A stretch of 19,605 nt of DNA from positions 1-19,605 of the forward strand of contig JAHKLH010000006.1 of assembly GCA_029856635.1 (NCBI GenBank), written 5' to 3'. The notes under the pieces were generated by a model. It made no database searches. It saw only the letters and a program-made list of their open reading frames with translations, and was not told the origin of the DNA. The DNA is from Candidatus Njordarchaeota archaeon (lineage in GTDB: Archaea; Asgardarchaeota; Njordarchaeia; Njordarchaeales; JAHKLH01). The position numbers and the translations under genes were made by a program. Positions within the stretch are counted from its first letter, which is position 1. The number at the start of each line of letters is the position of its first letter. Shown piece after piece: positions 23 through 18,484 of the stretch.

Positions 23-96
23 GCGCGGGTGGTCGAGGGGTAAGATGCCGGCCTGCCAAGCCGGTGACGCGGGTTCGAATCCCGCCCCGCGCACCA
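23..96 (+). tRNA. tRNA-Gly (anticodon GCC), with genomically encoded CCA
   Basis: Cloverleaf read by eye. Acceptor stem GCGCGGG (23-29) pairs with CCCGCGC (86-92). Anticodon stem CCGGC (48-52) pairs with GCCGG (60-64); loop CUGCCAA gives anticodon GCC. T arm GCGGG-UUCGAAU-CCCGC (69-85). 4-nt variable loop, discriminator A93, CCA at 94-96. No intron. Confidence 0.93.
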
Positions 97-2895: not shown

Positions 2896-3645
2896 GTGCG
2901 CATAGTTATATTGAGTAGCGATAATTATTTCAAAAAACACCAGGTATCCTTAGATGAGATCCTATCCTATGGAGAGTATGGAGAATTTCTTGGTGATGCC
3001 ATTTCCAAAGGCTTAAAACCGGTGAAAGCATTAAGAATGCTTTACAAGAATGGAAGTAGTTTTCTTGAGCTTCGAGAACGATTAAAAAAACATGATATAT
3101 CTGTTGAACTCTATTTCATTGCACCATTTGGTGTACTTCGCGAAAACGATTTAATTATTCCTTATGCTCCTAAGCTGAATGAACTAACTATGGAGAAACT
3201 TGCTTTCTTCTTTACGGAAAACAACATTATCGAATGTGTACAAAAAATCTTAGAAGAAGAGCCAGATATAATAATCATTGCATTGCCCTACAAGATAATA
3301 AAAGCACTAGGTGTGCTCAGTTACATTTCTCGTAATACAATTGCTATAATTATCTCTGATAAGGTATCTCCAATGTATGAAAGAAACATTGGATTCCTAG
3401 TAAATAAACCATTTTCTCCAAAAACCTGCGCAACAATAATTTCAAAGTTGCTTAGAAGAATTCTTTGGTTAGCGAAAGAGAATAAAATTAAAGATATTCT
3501 CGCAGAGCGTTCTGCAAATAAACTGATAAGTAATTATTTAGAGGAAAGAAGAGACTTAAGTTTGATGAAATATATTCTTCAAGGGGAAAAGAATGACAAA
3601 AAGGAAAATTGCAATACCCGGAGAAAAGCTTTGTTCAGTGACTAA
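2896..3645 (+). CDS. Hypothetical protein (249 aa), 3' end overlaps the csl4 start by 53 nt
   Basis: Provided ORF with a GTG start. No family recognised. Composition is coding-like. Confidence 0.55.
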   Translation: MRIVILSSDNYFKKHQVSLDEILSYGEYGEFLGDAISKGLKPVKALRMLYKNGSSFLELRERLKKHDISVELYFIAPFGVLRENDLIIPYAPKLNELTMEKLAFFFTENNIIECVQKILEEEPDIIIIALPYKIIKALGVLSYISRNTIAIIISDKVSPMYERNIGFLVNKPFSPKTCATIISKLLRRILWLAKENKIKDILAERSANKLISNYLEERRDLSLMKYILQGEKNDKKENCNTRRKALFSD

Positions 3646-4201
3646 AGCTATACCTGGAGAAAACGTGATTGTGAACCGTCAAAAAATATACTCAGTTGCA
3701 TTTGGCGAAGTGATATTAGATAAAGAAAATCACATACATGTTTTTCCATTGCGAGAAGTAAACTTTCCAAGGAAAAATGATTTAGCACTCGGTATTGTGT
3801 ATAACACTACTGAAATTCTGGTTTGGATACGATTAGTATGCGCTCTCAGAAACAATAAAATAATACCATATAACGGCATATTCACCGGAGTTATTCACAG
3901 GTCACAGACAGGCATGGTGGGCGATCCCCGACAAATTTTTGGACTTGGTGATATTGTACTTACTCGCGTATTAAGTTCAGAGTTTATCCCTTTAATGCTT
4001 TCAACACGGGAACCCGAGACTGGTATCGTTGCGGGCTATTGTAATAAAGATGGAGTTCCTTTAGAAAAAAGAGATGAGCAATTATTTTGTCCATTATGCA
4101 AAAAAACAGTAAGGAAGAAAATGTCTATTCACTATAATTTCAAGCAATTCAGAGCACTTTTCTTTCAGTATTATGAAGTAAAAAGAACATACGTGGTTTA
4201 A
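3593..4201 (+). CDS. csl4: Exosome complex RNA-binding cap subunit Csl4
   Basis: The N-terminal ...IAIPGEKL... segment, a central S1-like segment (...GIVYNTTE...GVIHRSQ...GDIVLTRVLS...) and the C-terminal zinc-ribbon region GIVAGYCNKDG...LFCPLCKK...RKKMS match Csl4 architecture. Confidence 0.8.
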   Translation: MTKRKIAIPGEKLCSVTKAIPGENVIVNRQKIYSVAFGEVILDKENHIHVFPLREVNFPRKNDLALGIVYNTTEILVWIRLVCALRNNKIIPYNGIFTGVIHRSQTGMVGDPRQIFGLGDIVLTRVLSSEFIPLMLSTREPETGIVAGYCNKDGVPLEKRDEQLFCPLCKKTVRKKMSIHYNFKQFRALFFQYYEVKRTYVV

Positions 4202-13211: not shown

Positions 13212-15497
13212 CTACCTCTCTTTGCGTTTTAACACAAAACTTAACCAATTTCTAATCGCGATTAATGATTTTACTAATAACTCCAATTCTCGATGGGATA
13301 ATATCCTATCAGCAAATACTATTTTCTCGTAGGAATTTACAAGATTATTTAATGAAGAAGCAATTTTCTTTGGGGCATGCCGAGATATATGACTAACAAA
13401 CTCCCGGAATGTCATCCATGGTGTCCACTTAACATTTAGGAATTCACCGATTTCATCACATAATCTTATGATATTAAGTGCAATCTTACCCCAATTTCGC
13501 CTATCAATTTCATCAATTGTAATGTCAATTAGCCTCATTATCTCAGAGATTTTTTCACGAGGCTTTGGTATCATTAGTTTCTTAAAGTAAGGAAAAGACA
13601 CAGCAATTACTAGTGCTAAGAGCAGTGTAATGAAAATGGGCCTTAAATCAGAGGGAGATGGTGTTATTTCTTCTTCTGGTGCTATTACGCTTACGTGAAT
13701 ATGCAACTCATACTTCTGTGTTTCTTCATTTTCCGGAACACTTAACCTGAAAATTATTTCAACGGTTTCATTTAACTGCAAAAATATAACTTTAGACACA
13801 TAGATTTCGATATTTTTTCTAGAAATATTACTGATTTCAATAGTGCAAAGAATAGTTTCATTATATGGTCTCAAGAAATTATCCAATATCGTGATGTTTA
13901 TTTCCAAGGTTACAGATTTTGCAAAGAATTCTAACTGAGAGGATGCGTTATGAGACACCACAGCACCATCGATGAGATCCCATGAAAACATTGTAGTGTT
14001 TACTCTAATGAACGCTGCTAGAAATCTCCAAATCAATACCTGTGTTGTATAATTCTTGGTAAAATAGAAACGCGAATCTGGTGATATAATATTTATTCCA
14101 ATAGTTACATTCGGCTCCATTAAATCTGCGGGGATTAAAATGTTCACATGAAAACGACCTAAGCTATCAGTGAGCACATTTTGTTGAAAGAAAAGAAATG
14201 TTGATGTTTTTGCAAAAATTAATAAAGAGGCGTTTCCTATGTATTTTCCTGATGGAACATCAACAACATGCCCGCTGATGCTTAAATAATCTCCAGCACG
14301 AACATAGTGCTTGCCTATGTTTACATCAACCACAGAAAGAATAGTGTATACGGTCATTGTTAAAATAGATGAAAAGTCGCTAGTGCTTGGATCTGTGTCA
14401 TTGAAAGTTAATATGTAATTCCCAACGGGAAAAGAAGGCGTTATGTTTAACAAAAATGTAAAACTTCCATCAACTGAAGTGTTTATTAGATAACTTTCGT
14501 TAAATGTAGATCCCCTTAGTGTAAACACTAACTGCGTAGCTTCCGGATCCCCCGTTGCATTTATATATTTTCCAGACACAATCACGTATGTATAATTTCT
14601 AAGAACCCTCAATGATGTGCTTCCATTAATCCTAGCACTAATTACACATGCCCATTTTACATTAAAGCTATCAAAATCCAAAGAACGGGGAATGCCAGAA
14701 ATGTTTGTTCTGTCTACAACATACTGTTCCTCGGCGATAAGATACTGAGCAGAGGGAATACTGCTTGCAATTGCATTGTAATTCGTGCCATTATACCAAA
14801 ATTCAGCTTGAACTTCATATCGTCCCTCACTTGTGAAATTGTAAATCAGCGTAAAAGAGCCATCTGTTCCTGTTGTTACATTAAATTGCTCAACAGAAGT
14901 GTTTAATTTAACATACAAAGATATGTTAATTGATTCAACTTTTAACTTCGTACCATTATCCATAACCAAAGATACAGTGATTTTAACATTTTTTTCAAAT
15001 GATGCTAAATTTCTCTTACTTAATTTAATATCAACGGAAATCTTACCCAAAATTGTTATTTCATATAATTTACTCGTTGGGCCAAATCCAGCTAGAGGAT
15101 TTCCAGGGTAATATATCCAAACAGTAGCATTTCCTATAGGATACGTAGACAAAACGGGAAATGAAACATTGAAATACCCCTGTGAATTCGTGCTAAAAGT
15201 TCCAATGAAAACAGATTTTCCACTACTAAAGTTAAGATAAACTTCAATTTGGTCATTGGGAATAGGTTCTCCAGTTTCTGGAGAGACTAATTGACCAGTA
15301 ATATTTACAAAATCCTCTCCGCGAACAAAGAATCCAAGCCAGTCAGAACTAGTTGCTCTTATTAAATTATCAAAGCTATTTTGTTTTGTTTCAGAAACTG
15401 CTTGCAGGCTTGAACTATTGATACATATATTGCCTCTAATGCCGAGCACTACATACAGTAGAGGGATCAAAAGAACTATTGTAGTTTTGAATCTCAT
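13212..15497 (-). CDS. Large secreted/surface protein with repeated beta-sandwich (carboxypeptidase-regulatory-like) modules, C-terminal TM and a DUF4129-like cytoplasmic tail
   Basis: It has a signal-like N-terminus, recurring ...G.V....G.PI.N..V......T...G.F...... modules and dozens of N-x-S/T sequons. TM LRPIFITLLLALVIAVSF. The tail ...WTPWMTFREFVSHIS...LNNLVNSYEKIVFADRILSHRE... resembles DUF4129. Confidence 0.62.
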   Translation of the reverse strand: MRFKTTIVLLIPLLYVVLGIRGNICINSSSLQAVSETKQNSFDNLIRATSSDWLGFFVRGEDFVNITGQLVSPETGEPIPNDQIEVYLNFSSGKSVFIGTFSTNSQGYFNVSFPVLSTYPIGNATVWIYYPGNPLAGFGPTSKLYEITILGKISVDIKLSKRNLASFEKNVKITVSLVMDNGTKLKVESINISLYVKLNTSVEQFNVTTGTDGSFTLIYNFTSEGRYEVQAEFWYNGTNYNAIASSIPSAQYLIAEEQYVVDRTNISGIPRSLDFDSFNVKWACVISARINGSTSLRVLRNYTYVIVSGKYINATGDPEATQLVFTLRGSTFNESYLINTSVDGSFTFLLNITPSFPVGNYILTFNDTDPSTSDFSSILTMTVYTILSVVDVNIGKHYVRAGDYLSISGHVVDVPSGKYIGNASLLIFAKTSTFLFFQQNVLTDSLGRFHVNILIPADLMEPNVTIGINIISPDSRFYFTKNYTTQVLIWRFLAAFIRVNTTMFSWDLIDGAVVSHNASSQLEFFAKSVTLEINITILDNFLRPYNETILCTIEISNISRKNIEIYVSKVIFLQLNETVEIIFRLSVPENEETQKYELHIHVSVIAPEEEITPSPSDLRPIFITLLLALVIAVSFPYFKKLMIPKPREKISEIMRLIDITIDEIDRRNWGKIALNIIRLCDEIGEFLNVKWTPWMTFREFVSHISRHAPKKIASSLNNLVNSYEKIVFADRILSHRELELLVKSLIAIRNWLSFVLKRKER

Positions 15498-16207
15498 ATC
15501 CGCCGCCGTGAGCGAAGTTTTTGAAGCTCCCGATTTATATACGAACGTACTCTGTTATAAAGATCGGGTACATGAGCTTCCCTTTCAATAAGTCTAATAG
15601 CACTCTCAACAATTTTCATAATCTCTGGATCCGCCTTTATCCAAATAACACCATTTGCACCAACGCGAATATCAGCATGTGTTAATTGCTTAATCATATT
15701 AATTAATTTTCCTTGTTTGCCAATAATTGCAGGAATTTTTGTTATATCTACGAAAATAAGCTTGCCACCAACGAGTTTACCAAGATCTGATGCTGCAGCA
15801 CTAAGCTGTGGAAGTGCGCCTCTTTCTGCTAAGATAACTTTAGCACAAACTACATCTCCCACATCCAAAAAACTCCTTATGTTTTCTCTCATTGGATCTA
15901 TAGGTCTACCTAAGAAATCTACTGCATCTAATCTTGCGACCTGATCAGCACCAATATCAACGTACCATGTAACGGGACCATAATCAACAACTTTTCCTAT
16001 CACTATGTCTCCCACCTTTGGAATATACTGATGATATCGAAGAGGAATGACCTTAACAGTCCTTTTTCGAAAATCAATGTGTGCAATACCCATAACATAC
16101 GCCCTAACAACATCACCATCTTTATAGGCCCCAAACTCTGTTCTCCATTGAGTACCCCTAACAATAGGTTCGCCAGGGATAACTATGCTACGATGCTTGG
16201 AACTCAT
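15494..16207 (-). CDS. rrp4: Exosome complex RNA-binding subunit Rrp4 (N-terminal, S1 and KH domains)
   Basis: ...IVIPGEPI..., S1 segment ...YIPKVGDIVIGKVVDYGPVTWYVDIG... and KH segment ...KIPAIIGKQGKLINMIKQLTHADIRVGANGVIWI... Confidence 0.9.
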   Translation of the reverse strand: MSSKHRSIVIPGEPIVRGTQWRTEFGAYKDGDVVRAYVMGIAHIDFRKRTVKVIPLRYHQYIPKVGDIVIGKVVDYGPVTWYVDIGADQVARLDAVDFLGRPIDPMRENIRSFLDVGDVVCAKVILAERGALPQLSAAASDLGKLVGGKLIFVDITKIPAIIGKQGKLINMIKQLTHADIRVGANGVIWIKADPEIMKIVESAIRLIEREAHVPDLYNRVRSYINRELQKLRSRRRI

Positions 16208-16292
16208 TCAAGACTCCTTCACAAATAATCTTTAACACAAAAAAGAAATCCAGTTTTTTATTGATACGAAAAAGTTTTGAAAAGCATTAGAA

Positions 16293-17039
16293 GTGATTAG
16301 AATGAAAAAAGGCGAAGTCCAATTACTTGATGAACAAAAAAGAAGACATGATGGGAGAGCGCCGAATGAAACACGACCAATATCAATGAAAGTAGGCGTT
16401 TTAGATAGAGCTGATGGTTCAGCATTAGTAGAGTTCGGCAAAACAAAAGTATTAGCCGCAGTTTATGGTCCAAGAGAGGTTCATCCAAGACACCTAGCAC
16501 TTCCCGATCGAGCATTATTGAGAGTTTCATACCGTATGGCAACATTTTCTACATGGGAAAGAAAACGCCCCACTCCCTCTAGGCGCGAAATAGAATTAAG
16601 TATGGTAATTGCAAGTGCGCTCGAACCAGCATTATTTCTAGAAAAATATCCAAAATGTGCAATTGATGTGTTCTGTCTTGTAATCGAAGCTGATGGCGGC
16701 ACACGTACTACAGCAATTAATGCAGCATCTTTAGCGTTAGCAGATGCTGGTATTCCAATGAGAGGATTAGTTGTAGCAATAGCTGTTGGAAGAGTTGGTG
16801 ATACCATCATAGTTGACCTAGATGAGGTTGAAGACAATTACGCTGAGTCAGATATGCCGATTGCAATGCTATTTCCACAAGAAGAAATTACACTTTTACA
16901 GATGGATGGAACAATGTCACCACATCTTTTCGAGCAAGCATTAGAAACTGCAAGACAAGTGCTGAGGAATGTTTACTCTCTTCAAGTAAAAGCTCTAAAA
17001 GAAAGAGCGCTTAAAGCTAGAACAAAGGTTGTATTATAG
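16293..17039 (+). CDS. rrp41: Exosome complex exonuclease Rrp41 (RNase PH-like catalytic subunit)
   Basis: ...DGRAPNETRPI...ADGSALVEFGKTKVLAAVYGPRE.HPRHLALPDRALLRVSY...PSRREIELS...ADGGTR...ASLALADAGIPMR... closely matches archaeal Rrp41. GTG at 16293 or ATG at 16302. Confidence 0.93.
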   Translation: MIRMKKGEVQLLDEQKRRHDGRAPNETRPISMKVGVLDRADGSALVEFGKTKVLAAVYGPREVHPRHLALPDRALLRVSYRMATFSTWERKRPTPSRREIELSMVIASALEPALFLEKYPKCAIDVFCLVIEADGGTRTTAINAASLALADAGIPMRGLVVAIAVGRVGDTIIVDLDEVEDNYAESDMPIAMLFPQEEITLLQMDGTMSPHLFEQALETARQVLRNVYSLQVKALKERALKARTKVVL

Positions 17040-17915
17040 GTGAATTTCATGGCGGAGGAAGAAAGAAAAATCATTCCCAGCATTATCAAGGAAAATATTC
17101 TTGAATTACTGAAAGAAGAAAAAAGAATTGACGGAAGAAAACTATTCGAATTCAGGAAGTTAAGAATAATCCCTGGGCCAATTGAGAAAGCAGAGGGAAG
17201 CGCATTAGTGCTCTTAGGAAACACAAAAGTGCTTGTTGGAGTAAAAATGTCACTAGGAAAACCATTTCCAGACACACCTAATGAAGGAGTACTCGTAGTA
17301 AATGCCGAATTTCAACCAGTTGCTTCTCCTTATTGGGAACTTGGTCCAAATGAATATGCAATTGAACTAGCGAGGGTAGTGGATCGCGCAATAAGATCGT
17401 CAGGAATGGTAGCATTAGATGAACTTGTCATACATCCCGGCGAACTCTGCTGGGTAATAAACGTGGACATATATCCAATAGACGACAATGGAAACTTAAT
17501 TGACACAGCATTAATTGGAGCTGTAGCAGCATTACTAACAACAAGAGTTCCTGAAATAGATTTTTCAAGCGGAAAACCACAGTTAAAAAGAGAAGAAGGA
17601 AAACCATTACCAATACGCGACATACCAATATCATGTACATTCGCAAAAATAGGCGAACAAATGGTACTAGACCCAAACAAACAAGAAGAGTGTCTCATGA
17701 GTGCAAGACTAACAATAGCAGTAAACTCCGCTAATGAAATATGCACAATCCAGAAAATGAAAGGAGGAGGATTCACAATCGATGATATCATTAGAGCAAA
17801 AGACATAACAATTCAAAAAGCAAAAGATCTACGAAGAGAAATACAGAAACAAGTAGCAGAAAAAGCAAGAGGAGAAGAAATCTGGAAAGAAATCAGAGAA
17901 GTACTTACAAGTTAA
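17040..17915 (+). CDS. rrp42: Exosome complex subunit Rrp42 (RNase PH-like, non-catalytic)
   Basis: ...RIDGRKLFEFRKLRI...AEGSALVLLGNTKVLVGVK... has an RNase PH fold pattern and lies immediately after rrp41. GTG at 17040 abuts the rrp41 stop; an ATG at 17049 is an alternative. Confidence 0.9.
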   Translation: MNFMAEEERKIIPSIIKENILELLKEEKRIDGRKLFEFRKLRIIPGPIEKAEGSALVLLGNTKVLVGVKMSLGKPFPDTPNEGVLVVNAEFQPVASPYWELGPNEYAIELARVVDRAIRSSGMVALDELVIHPGELCWVINVDIYPIDDNGNLIDTALIGAVAALLTTRVPEIDFSSGKPQLKREEGKPLPIRDIPISCTFAKIGEQMVLDPNKQEECLMSARLTIAVNSANEICTIQKMKGGGFTIDDIIRAKDITIQKAKDLRREIQKQVAEKARGEEIWKEIREVLTS

Positions 17916-18175: not shown

Positions 18176-18185
18176 CTTTTTATAT
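18176..18185 (+). promoter_or_regulatory. Candidate TATA box (TTTTTATATG region) for the 5S rRNA precursor
   Basis: TATA-like box about 25 nt upstream of where the sequence turns GC-rich (about 18207-18212). T-runs at 18384-18387 and 18404-18408 follow the GC-rich block. Confidence 0.5.
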
Positions 18186-18215
18186 GTTAACTCATTCTAT
18201 ACATAACGGTCTAAG

Positions 18216-18371
18216 GCGGGCTCCCCGGAAGCTAAGCCGCGCCACGACGGGCTGCTAGGAGGGTGCGCGAGCCCCTCCGAAGGCTCGTTGCTGCCAGCTC
18301 CATTCGGGGCTGGCGGCCACAGGGCGCGGGATAACGCCCGTTCCCATTCCGAACACGGAAAGGAGCCCGTC
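18216..18371 (+). other. 5S rRNA precursor unit, including leader/trailer processing helix and BHB-like motif
   Basis: Leader GGCGGGCUCC (18216-18225) pairs with trailer GGAGCCCGUC (18362-18371): 10 bp including one G-U. Inside it lie the 3-nt bulge A18359-A18361, central helix C18226:G18358, C18227:G18357, G18228:C18356 plus a G18229/A18355 mismatch, and the 3-nt bulge A18230-G18232. Confidence 0.6.
18232..18360 (+). rRNA. 5S rRNA, circularly permuted gene (order: 3' half, 4-nt loop, 5' half)
   Basis: 18306-18360 GGGGCUGGCGGCCACAGGGCGCGGGAUAACGCCCGUUCCCAUUCCGAACACGGAA is a canonical archaeal 5S 5' half. 18232-18301 GCUAAGCCGCGCCACGACGGGCUGCUAGGAGGGUGCGCGAGCCCCUCCGAAGGCUCGUUGCUGCCAGCUCC is the canonical 3' half. 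Helices I, II (GGCGCGG/CCGCGCC), III (UUCC/GGAA), IV (GGAGGG/CCCUCC) and V (ACGGGCU/GGCUCGU) all form only after rotation. Confidence 0.85.
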
Positions 18372-18484
18372 GTCCTTGATTAATTTTCATTAAAATTCTC
18401 CTATTTTTAGTTCAATGTCAACGAAATTCTTTATTAAGGTTTAAAGGTATCTTAAGTGAGTATTTGTGAGAGAATGGTGATGAG

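Follow-up and report, generated by a model that had tools for sequence, protein, structure and literature searches.

A circularly permuted 5S rRNA gene in Njordarchaeales-like Asgard archaea, enclosed by a relaxed bulge-helix-bulge motif and predicted to mature through a circular RNA

The 19,605-nt stretch analyzed in this study (positions 1 to 19,605 of contig JAHKLH010000006.1, assembly GCA_029856635.1, Candidatus Njordarchaeota archaeon), referred to below as the window, harbors a circularly permuted 5S ribosomal RNA (rRNA) gene at positions 18215-18371, with the molecule's 3' half encoded before the 5' half. Both halves are enclosed by a leader and a trailer, which together with the ends of the 5S body display the geometry of a relaxed archaeal bulge-helix-bulge (BHB) motif. 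The permutation, the 5S fold of the predicted product, the conserved motif geometry and the occurrence of the same geometry in transfer RNA (tRNA) introns of the lineage are directly supported. Excision and circularization of the permuted precursor by the splicing endonuclease EndA and the ligase RtcB is proposed as the probable maturation pathway; cleavage, ligation and a circle as the final ribosomal form are steps that we infer.

Screening of the window at Rfam gathering thresholds returned a tRNA as the only match. At permissive thresholds, the 5S rRNA model RF00001 (gathering score 38 bits) produced two partial matches to the locus as encoded, appearing in swapped order and scoring 23.2 and 14.6 bits. 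Within the 23.2-bit match, the part covering model positions 1-51, to which 18309-18360 aligns, is genuine and the rest is spurious, and the 14.6-bit match places about 18224-18299 against model positions of about 33/45-120. A collinear RF00001 match of at least 38 bits was not obtained for the encoded gene; swapped matches below the gathering score are expected, since the gene is permuted. The breakpoint is located between model positions 51 and 52, right after the conserved bulged AA of helix III.

Joining the two halves in silico restores a conventional 5S molecule. The predicted cuts, 18230/18231 and 18360/18361, had been expected to regenerate the canonical 5S junction, and this expectation was confirmed: CGGAA-GCUAAGCC is obtained in 16/16 homologues and helix III forms across the junction. 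The predicted product comprises 130 nt in the window and 126-133 nt in the homologues, and across the ligation point the joined sequence reads ...CCGAACACGGAA/GCUAAGCCGCGCC... For comparison, the products were opened in silico at the loop capping helix I and aligned (alignment A2) with five conventional archaeal 5S genes scoring 71-99 bits each. The rotated spliced products align collinearly with the conventional archaeal 5S sequences at 57-70% identity, and the conventional genes share 62-65% identity among themselves. RNAalifold applied to A2 yields the canonical helices I-V with compensatory changes in 25 of 34 pairs. Helix III, including its AA bulge, is recovered, with the pairs 32:58 and 33:57 bridging the ligation junction, which is crossed by CCCAUUCCGAACACGGAAGCUAAGCC in the rotated product. 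With A18360 joined to G18231 and the cap opened, the molecule is collinear with 5S rRNA and shows the five helices, the three-way junction and the conserved loop C.

In total, 16 distinct permuted 5S sequences were collected from ENA, JGI, Logan and NCBI assemblies (metagenomes and one metagenome-assembled genome, MAG); the MAG contig carrying a permuted 5S is JANJXX010000007.1 of NCBI. A permutation-specific pattern scan of JGI metagenomes yielded 12 further permuted 5S genes. None of the homologues reaches the RF00001 gathering score, and they would therefore be missed by routine annotation. Furthermore, a conventional 5S, recognizable by the normal CGGAAG.TAAGC junction or by an Rfam match, was not found in 206 kb of DNA from the lineage, an amount short of a whole genome. 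Scanning of genome contigs with the pattern TAAGC-N(90-120)-loop C returned mostly ordinary 5S genes preceded by a chance TAAGC, and one true new match (L071). Two pattern hits were rejected as false positives, namely L083, which is alphaproteobacterial, and L143, a conventional-order 5S variant with an A after GGAA.

The permuted 5S sequence of the window is identical in three independent assemblies and therefore does not represent an assembly artefact; taken together with covariation in every helix, this identity rules out an artefact or a pseudogene. On contig L012, which encodes a ribosomal protein uS2 99% identical to that of the window, the preceding 5S differs at several positions, including three cases in which both partners of a pair in the outer helix formed by leader and trailer have changed in a compensatory manner. 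Contigs of relatives with 63%-identical uS2 likewise have permuted 5S genes. In one further case (L002, 6612-6392, minus strand), the leader CCAGCGCUCUAGG mismatches its own trailer CUCGGAGUACCGG and resembles the leader of L134; L002 is probably a chimeric assembly of L134-like and L001-like strains and not an instance of a decayed helix.

All 16 sequences share one layout: the outer helix, 10-16 bp long, adjoins CCGR and AAA in identical register; CCGR is followed by AAG on the 5' strand, and NCGG by AAA on the 3' strand. Pair counts based on alignment A1 of the 16 homologues revealed compensatory changes in 12 of 12 scored pairs of the outer helix, with 97.9% of the cells paired. When the partner column was slid by 1-3 positions, the whole structure was only 40-50% paired, and the observed covariation score was matched by none of 500 shuffles. 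Helices I, II, IV and V of the 5S body covary too. Moreover, RNAfold found unaided the leader/trailer outer helix that the original prediction had described, and the region folds with a z-score of -4.79 against dinucleotide shuffles. No column of the outer helix is invariant, whereas the leader nucleotides C, C, G, A and A and the third A of the 3' bulge, all of which would be discarded, are invariant in 16/16 sequences. Because these discarded nucleotides are invariant while all outer-helix columns vary, this pattern is the strongest sign that the motif itself may be under selection.

A BHB motif is composed of two 3-nt bulges separated by a 4-bp central helix (H) and bordered by flanking helices h and h', and relaxed forms are defined by the absence of one element (PMC3978253; PMC7714728). 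At the permuted 5S locus, two 3-nt bulges on opposite strands, AAA at 18359-18361 and AAG at 18229-18231, are invariant in 16/16 sequences and are spaced by four positions in all of them. The flanking helix h, for which at least 2 bp are required, comprises 10 bp in the window including one G.U pair (G18215:C18371, G18216.U18370, C18217:G18369 and so on to C18224:G18362). Helix H contains three Watson-Crick pairs in the window, C18225:G18358, C18226:G18357 and G18227:C18356, and G18228 faces A18355. These three pairs are invariant in the family and hence without covariation. The fourth H position is A:U in 6 sequences (CCGA/UCGG, with a U in the 5S at this place) and G.A or A.A in 10. As anticipated, the motif is relaxed, since an inner helix h' cannot form, and it is best classified as the hBH or BHL form defined in PMC3978253.

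All elements that the original prediction had described, including the leader and trailer strings, are present, and its 3'-side coordinates are exact, but those on the 5' side were too high by one. The strand GGCGGGCUCC occupies 18215-18224 and not 18216-18225, followed by CCGG at 18225-18228 and AAG at 18229-18231. Consequently, the released piece would extend from G18231, not G18232, to A18360 (130 nt), and the predicted junction ...CACGGAA-GCUAAGCC... stands as claimed.

Two tRNA introns on contigs with permuted 5S genes served as internal controls. The tRNA-Ile(GAU) gene of L141 (11699-11561, minus strand) contains a strict hBHBh' intron of 65 nt, whose inner helix comprises 7 bp (CCCGG / CUGA / UA^A ... 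UCAG / AG^A / CCGGG). The tRNA-Ser(GCU) gene of L133 (4512-4607, plus strand), situated about 350 nt 5' of the 5S, contains a 13-nt relaxed hBH-loop intron without an inner helix (UCGGC / CUGC / UA^G auuuau GUAG / AA^A / GCCGA). In both introns, the 3'-strand bulge adjoins the outer helix, with the 5'-strand bulge in the distal place, and the canonical 37/38 splice results when each bulge is cut after its second nucleotide. The strand arrangement of the 5S motif and the cut rule, as given in the original prediction, thus agree with introns of the same lineage. Like the 5S motif, the L133 tRNA-Ser intron is devoid of h' and has an AAA 3' bulge.

The native helix III pair 133:147 switches from U:A to A:U among the homologues. 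This switch and the pattern at the fourth H position together indicate that the same 3' nucleotides serve two alternative helices. In constrained folding, the BHB conformer was favored over the native helix III conformer by 0 to 2.7 kcal/mol in 16/16 precursors; being isoenergetic or slightly favored, the motif is therefore accessible before cleavage. After cleavage, the native helix III fold is the only one predicted to remain. Regarding the two clades, sequences with A at 5S position 46 have G or A, never U, as the fourth H nucleotide of the leader (A1 columns 16 and 147), and their H always ends in a purine-purine mismatch, whereas the other clade shows a perfect A:U pair. In the U-type clade (L071, L133, L142, L149), the 5S is located directly downstream of a tRNA cluster.

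For the Rrp41 protein encoded in the window, the best named relatives belong to Candidatus Njordarchaeales, Njordarchaeum guaymaensis and Njordarchaeia. Furthermore, contigs with permuted 5S genes encode Snf7, an EAP30 (ESCRT-II) domain protein and Arf- and Ras-family GTPases. These are Asgard hallmarks, and the carriers are, as judged from their encoded proteins, Njordarchaeales-like Asgard archaea. For four Asgard genomes, an (alpha-beta)2 EndA with an L1 loop giving broad substrate specificity has been described (PMC5829648). EndA of the carriers is presumably of this type, in line with the broad-specificity enzyme that the original prediction had called for, and the relaxed tRNA-Ser intron of L133 would indirectly fit such a broad-specificity enzyme.

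Concerning transcription, TATA-like boxes (TTTAAAAA / TTTATAAA / TTTTTATA) were found 33-45 nt 5' of the helix in most homologues, and T4-5 follows the helix immediately on the 3' side in several. These signals suggest a stand-alone precursor that is little longer than the helix-to-helix span and starts a few nucleotides before 18215. The genomic leader stretch reads GGCUCCCCGGAAGCUAAG and the genomic trailer stretch CACGGAAAGGAGCC.

In the proposed pathway, transcription would begin a few nucleotides 5' of 18215, and leader and trailer would form the 10-bp helix. The leader CCGG would pair with ACGG at the 3' end of the 5S body, transiently displacing the native strand CCGU (18338-18341), and the AAA bulge on the 3' strand and the AAG bulge on the 5' strand would become exposed four positions apart as a relaxed BHB of the hBH(L) form. 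EndA, presumably (alpha-beta)2, would then cut after the second nucleotide of each bulge (18230/18231 and 18360/18361), and RtcB would ligate A18360 to G18231. The ends left by EndA, a 2',3'-cyclic phosphate and a 5'-OH, are natural RtcB substrates. The predicted product is a 130-nt covalently closed RNA containing ...CACGGAA-GCUAAGCC..., with a tetraloop on the former helix I ends, and the native helix III with its AA bulge would form after ligation.

Several observations weigh against this pathway. Neither an EndA nor an RtcB gene was found in the window or at the loci inspected, and the EndA type comes from literature on other Asgard lineages. The three H pairs never vary and give no covariation signal, and the fourth position lacks a Watson-Crick pair in the window as well as in 10 of the 16 sequences; the association of U with A at this position may reflect a single evolutionary event in one clade. 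In addition, H and native helix III are in competition, and in unconstrained runs both RNAfold and RNAalifold pair the invariant H nucleotides otherwise. Since unconstrained folds omit H, its support rests on conservation, geometry and constrained energies. The inner helix h' is absent, as 18232 and the following bases cannot pair with 18354 and those before it. Finally, both ends carry the same short sequence (CGGAA in the window, an A run in the other clade), so that 2-6 cut registers lead to the same junction; exact junction regeneration therefore discriminates less than it appears.

Three other fates of the transcript deserve consideration. The circle might be an intermediate, with a second nuclease opening or removing the helix I cap loop to release a conventional linear 5S with ends in helix I. 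Precedents are provided by permuted tRNAs, which are reopened by RNase P and tRNase Z (PMC3978253), and by circular 16S/23S pre-rRNAs, which are generally thought to be re-linearized (PMC12918454). However, a tRNA-like element is absent from the permuted 5S, and circular signal recognition particle (SRP) RNA and circular 23S rRNA exemplify circles as final forms. The cap in the homologues is a loop of only 3-4 nt (UUCG, GCAA, GUAA, UAGA and similar) on a helix I of 11-12 bp where counted. Its small size and frequent UUCG or GNRA sequence make a lasting structural cap more plausible than a second site of processing, and re-linearization is accordingly considered unlikely.

Slightly less likely again is a linear permuted 5S that is not cut by EndA and in which the leader/trailer helix persists as an extra arm emanating from the helix III AA bulge. 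Mitochondrial permuted 5S rRNAs, e.g., those of brown algae, do stay linear and permuted (PMC4267664), and energetically the native helix III conformer could form with the outer helix still in place. Such a molecule would leave the leader CCGRAA as an unpaired linker, although these nucleotides are invariant beside a fully turned-over helix. Moreover, the length of that helix varies from 10 to 16 bp, and the geometry copies that of the tRNA-intron BHBs of the same lineage. The AA bulge of helix III is a ribosomal-protein contact region, where an arm of 10-16 bp would probably clash. Hardly credible, finally, is a stem serving a nuclease other than EndA, or exonuclease trimming up to the helix, which would result in a nicked, un-ligated 5S held together by helices II and III: leader-trailer helices do flank rRNAs generally (PMC11404451), and tRNase Z and FAU-1 act on archaeal pre-5S, but the 3-nt/4-position/3-nt geometry, the invariance of the discarded nucleotides and the match to tRNA BHBs would be left unexplained.

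Supported by comparative evidence and by the tRNA-intron controls, EndA/RtcB excision and circularization remains the favored pathway. The farther-reaching proposition, namely that the permuted gene is the only 5S gene of the lineage and that its ribosomal 5S is a circle made by EndA and RtcB and descended from a BHB intron in helix III, is put forward tentatively, as something that falls slightly short of an even chance.

With respect to such an intron, the metagenome scan that uncovered the permuted 5S genes also yielded 5S genes of conventional order with an insertion in helix III (L138, 1226-1362, minus strand; L145, 5236-5381, minus strand; L146, 7907-8043, plus strand; L147; L150). These genes score 42-48 bits with Rfam, above gathering, and reside on Aenigmatarchaeota-like contigs with 33-35% G+C. 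The insertion measures 22 or 32 nt between the predicted cuts and follows the layout CACG / GAA / hairpin / CGUG / AAA / GUUAAGC, including a 4-bp H, two 3-nt bulges and an inner helix varying in sequence and length among the variants. Application of the cut rule gives CACGGA-AGUUAAGC, and predicted splicing restores CACGGAAGUUAAGC. The insertion looks like a BHB intron of 5S rRNA positioned one nucleotide from the permutation breakpoint; a description of a 5S rRNA intron was not found in the searchable literature. It would fit descent of the permuted genes from intron-bearing genes, an ancestry likewise suggested for permuted genes by the authors of the SRP RNA study (PMC4731332). If the maturation pathway proposed for the permuted 5S holds, the intron-bearing 5S in another phylum would represent a plausible evolutionary intermediate.

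The features of the locus are compiled in Table 1. Its neighbors are the exosome genes Rrp41/Rrp42 on one side and the gene for ribosomal protein uS2 on the other. Only two G+C-rich islands exist in the window, which has 36% G+C overall: the region 18190-18386 and an intron-less tRNA-Gly(GCC) gene (23-96, plus strand; Rfam 70.8 bits). The arrangement of the exosome genes is unusual. A Rrp4-like gene (S1 and KH domains) is encoded on the minus strand, divergent from Rrp41-Rrp42 (exosome genes of the window, 15494-17915), and a second open reading frame with an ECR1_N (Rrp4/Csl4 N-terminal) domain is present at 3593-4201, 12 kb from the exosome genes. On named Njordarchaeales contigs, the order Rrp4-Rrp41-Rrp42-L37ae is co-directional; a 5S beside Rrp41/Rrp42 was found on none of those checked, and the synteny differs. 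On L001, L009 and L141, the permuted 5S adjoins genes for PCNA and an Arf GTPase. The 5S has therefore changed position.

Table 1. Elements of the permuted 5S rRNA locus, in window coordinates.
Feature	Position	Strand	Remarks
TATA-like box TTTTTATAT	18177..18185	+	about 33 nt 5' of the leader helix; predicted from sequence
Leader strand of outer helix h, GGCGGGCUCC	18215..18224	+	pairs with 18362-18371; predicted to be discarded after cleavage
BHB central helix H, 5' strand CCGG	18225..18228	+	mimic of helix III strand CCGU 18338-18341; predicted to be discarded
5'-strand 3-nt bulge AAG	18229..18231	+	predicted cut A18230/G18231; G18231 would become 5S position 52
5S rRNA 3' half, Rfam positions about 52-120	18231..18301	+	RF00001 partial match; helices II, IV, V and I covary; also includes helix III proximal strand, helices V/IV and loop E
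Helix II, 3' strand	18237-18243	+	within 5S 3' half
Helix I, 3' strand	18290-18301	+	within 5S 3' half
Helix I cap, 4-nt loop AUUC	18302..18305	+	connects ancestral 3' and 5' ends; helix I of 12 bp
5S rRNA 5' half, Rfam positions 1-51	18306..18360	+	RF00001 model 1-51, high posterior
Helix I, 5' strand	18306-18317	+	within 5S 5' half
Helix II, 5' strand	18323-18329	+	within 5S 5' half
Helix III and loop C	18336-18358	+	within 5S 5' half
BHB central helix H, 3' strand ACGG	18355..18358	+	in the mature RNA, predicted partner of 18338-18341 (native helix III)
Bulged AA of helix III	18359-18360	+	end of 5S 5' half
3'-strand 3-nt bulge AAA	18359..18361	+	predicted cut A18360/A18361
Trailer strand of outer helix, GGAGCCCGUC	18362..18371	+	predicted to be discarded
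First downstream T run TTTT	18384..18387	+	plausible archaeal oligo-T terminator

Maturation of 5S rRNA by EndA/RtcB excision and circularization is a route for which a description could not be found in the searchable literature, and 5S alone among the archaeal rRNAs has been stated not to undergo BHB-dependent excision and circularization (PMC12918454). If the proposal is correct, un-scrambling of RNAs by EndA and RtcB would extend from tRNA and SRP RNA to a core ribosomal RNA, in an Asgard lineage relevant to eukaryote origins. It would also explain why 5S would be missed in these MAGs by Rfam and by pipelines built on it. A circular 5S would be predicted for the ribosome of a thermophile, and a leader sequence mimicking a native helix strand would create a transient splice motif. 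Should the circle be the final form, this would make it the first 5S rRNA that is circular and the first essential rRNA to depend on EndA and RtcB for its order.

A listing of natural RNA permutations up to 2023 contains an organellar example as its sole 5S case (PMC10085705), and archaeal permuted, circular or intron-containing 5S was not found in the searchable literature, subscription-only papers not being covered. The organellar case is the mitochondrial permuted 5S of brown algae and other stramenopiles (Valach et al. 2014, PMC4267664). Like the 5S described here, it has helix I closed as a hairpin and termini placed elsewhere. Its termini, however, lie at the alpha/gamma junction, it is made without BHB or splicing machinery, and the organellar product is linear and permuted, whereas the breakpoint in the archaeal gene falls into helix III (beta domain) between Rfam positions 51/52.

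Archaeal BHB introns of tRNA, 16S/23S rRNA and mRNA share the recognition motif and the cut rule with the 5S motif. In contrast to these introns, the flanks of the 5S would be discarded and the intron-like inner piece would be the functional RNA. In archaeal 16S and 23S rRNA (Pyrococcus, Thermococcus, Methanosarcina), a leader/trailer helix also carries a BHB, and EndA cleavage plus ligation leads to circular rRNA; in some archaeal lineages, the 23S remains circular or permuted in the ribosome. The BHB circularization pathway has been stated for 16S and 23S but not for 5S rRNA (PMC12918454). The 16S/23S genes are collinear and their circularization joins normal ends, whereas the permuted 5S would require circularization to restore its internal order.

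Permuted tRNA genes, known from Cyanidioschyzon merolae, other algae and Thermofilum pendens, pass through a circular intermediate, and a tandem-duplication or an intron origin has been proposed for them (PMC3978253). As in the 5S gene, a leader, 3' half, linker, 5' half and trailer follow one another, with a strict or relaxed BHB at the junction. The 5S shares with permuted noncoding RNAs the swapped halves, the short linker joining the ancestral ends and the leader/trailer BHB, which is relaxed in this case. In contrast to permuted tRNA circles, which RNase P and tRNase Z open again at the acceptor stem, the 5S linker is a loop of 3-4 nt without an evident reopening signal.

Of the known systems, the permuted SRP RNA of Thermoproteus comes closest; its leader/trailer BHB is cut by recombinant EndA and its circle is functional (Plagens et al. 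2015, PMC4731332). In T. tenax and T. uzoniensis, as in the 5S gene described here, the 3' part is encoded before the 5' part and a BHB is formed by leader and trailer. Cutting of the SRP RNA by the heterotetrameric EndA and subsequent ligation restore a conserved helix, and the same is predicted from sequence for the 5S. Unlike the Thermoproteus SRP RNA, the RNA concerned here is a component of the ribosome, the host is a Njordarchaeales-like Asgard archaeon and not a member of the Thermoproteales, and the central helix would be made by a leader that mimics a strand of the native helix.

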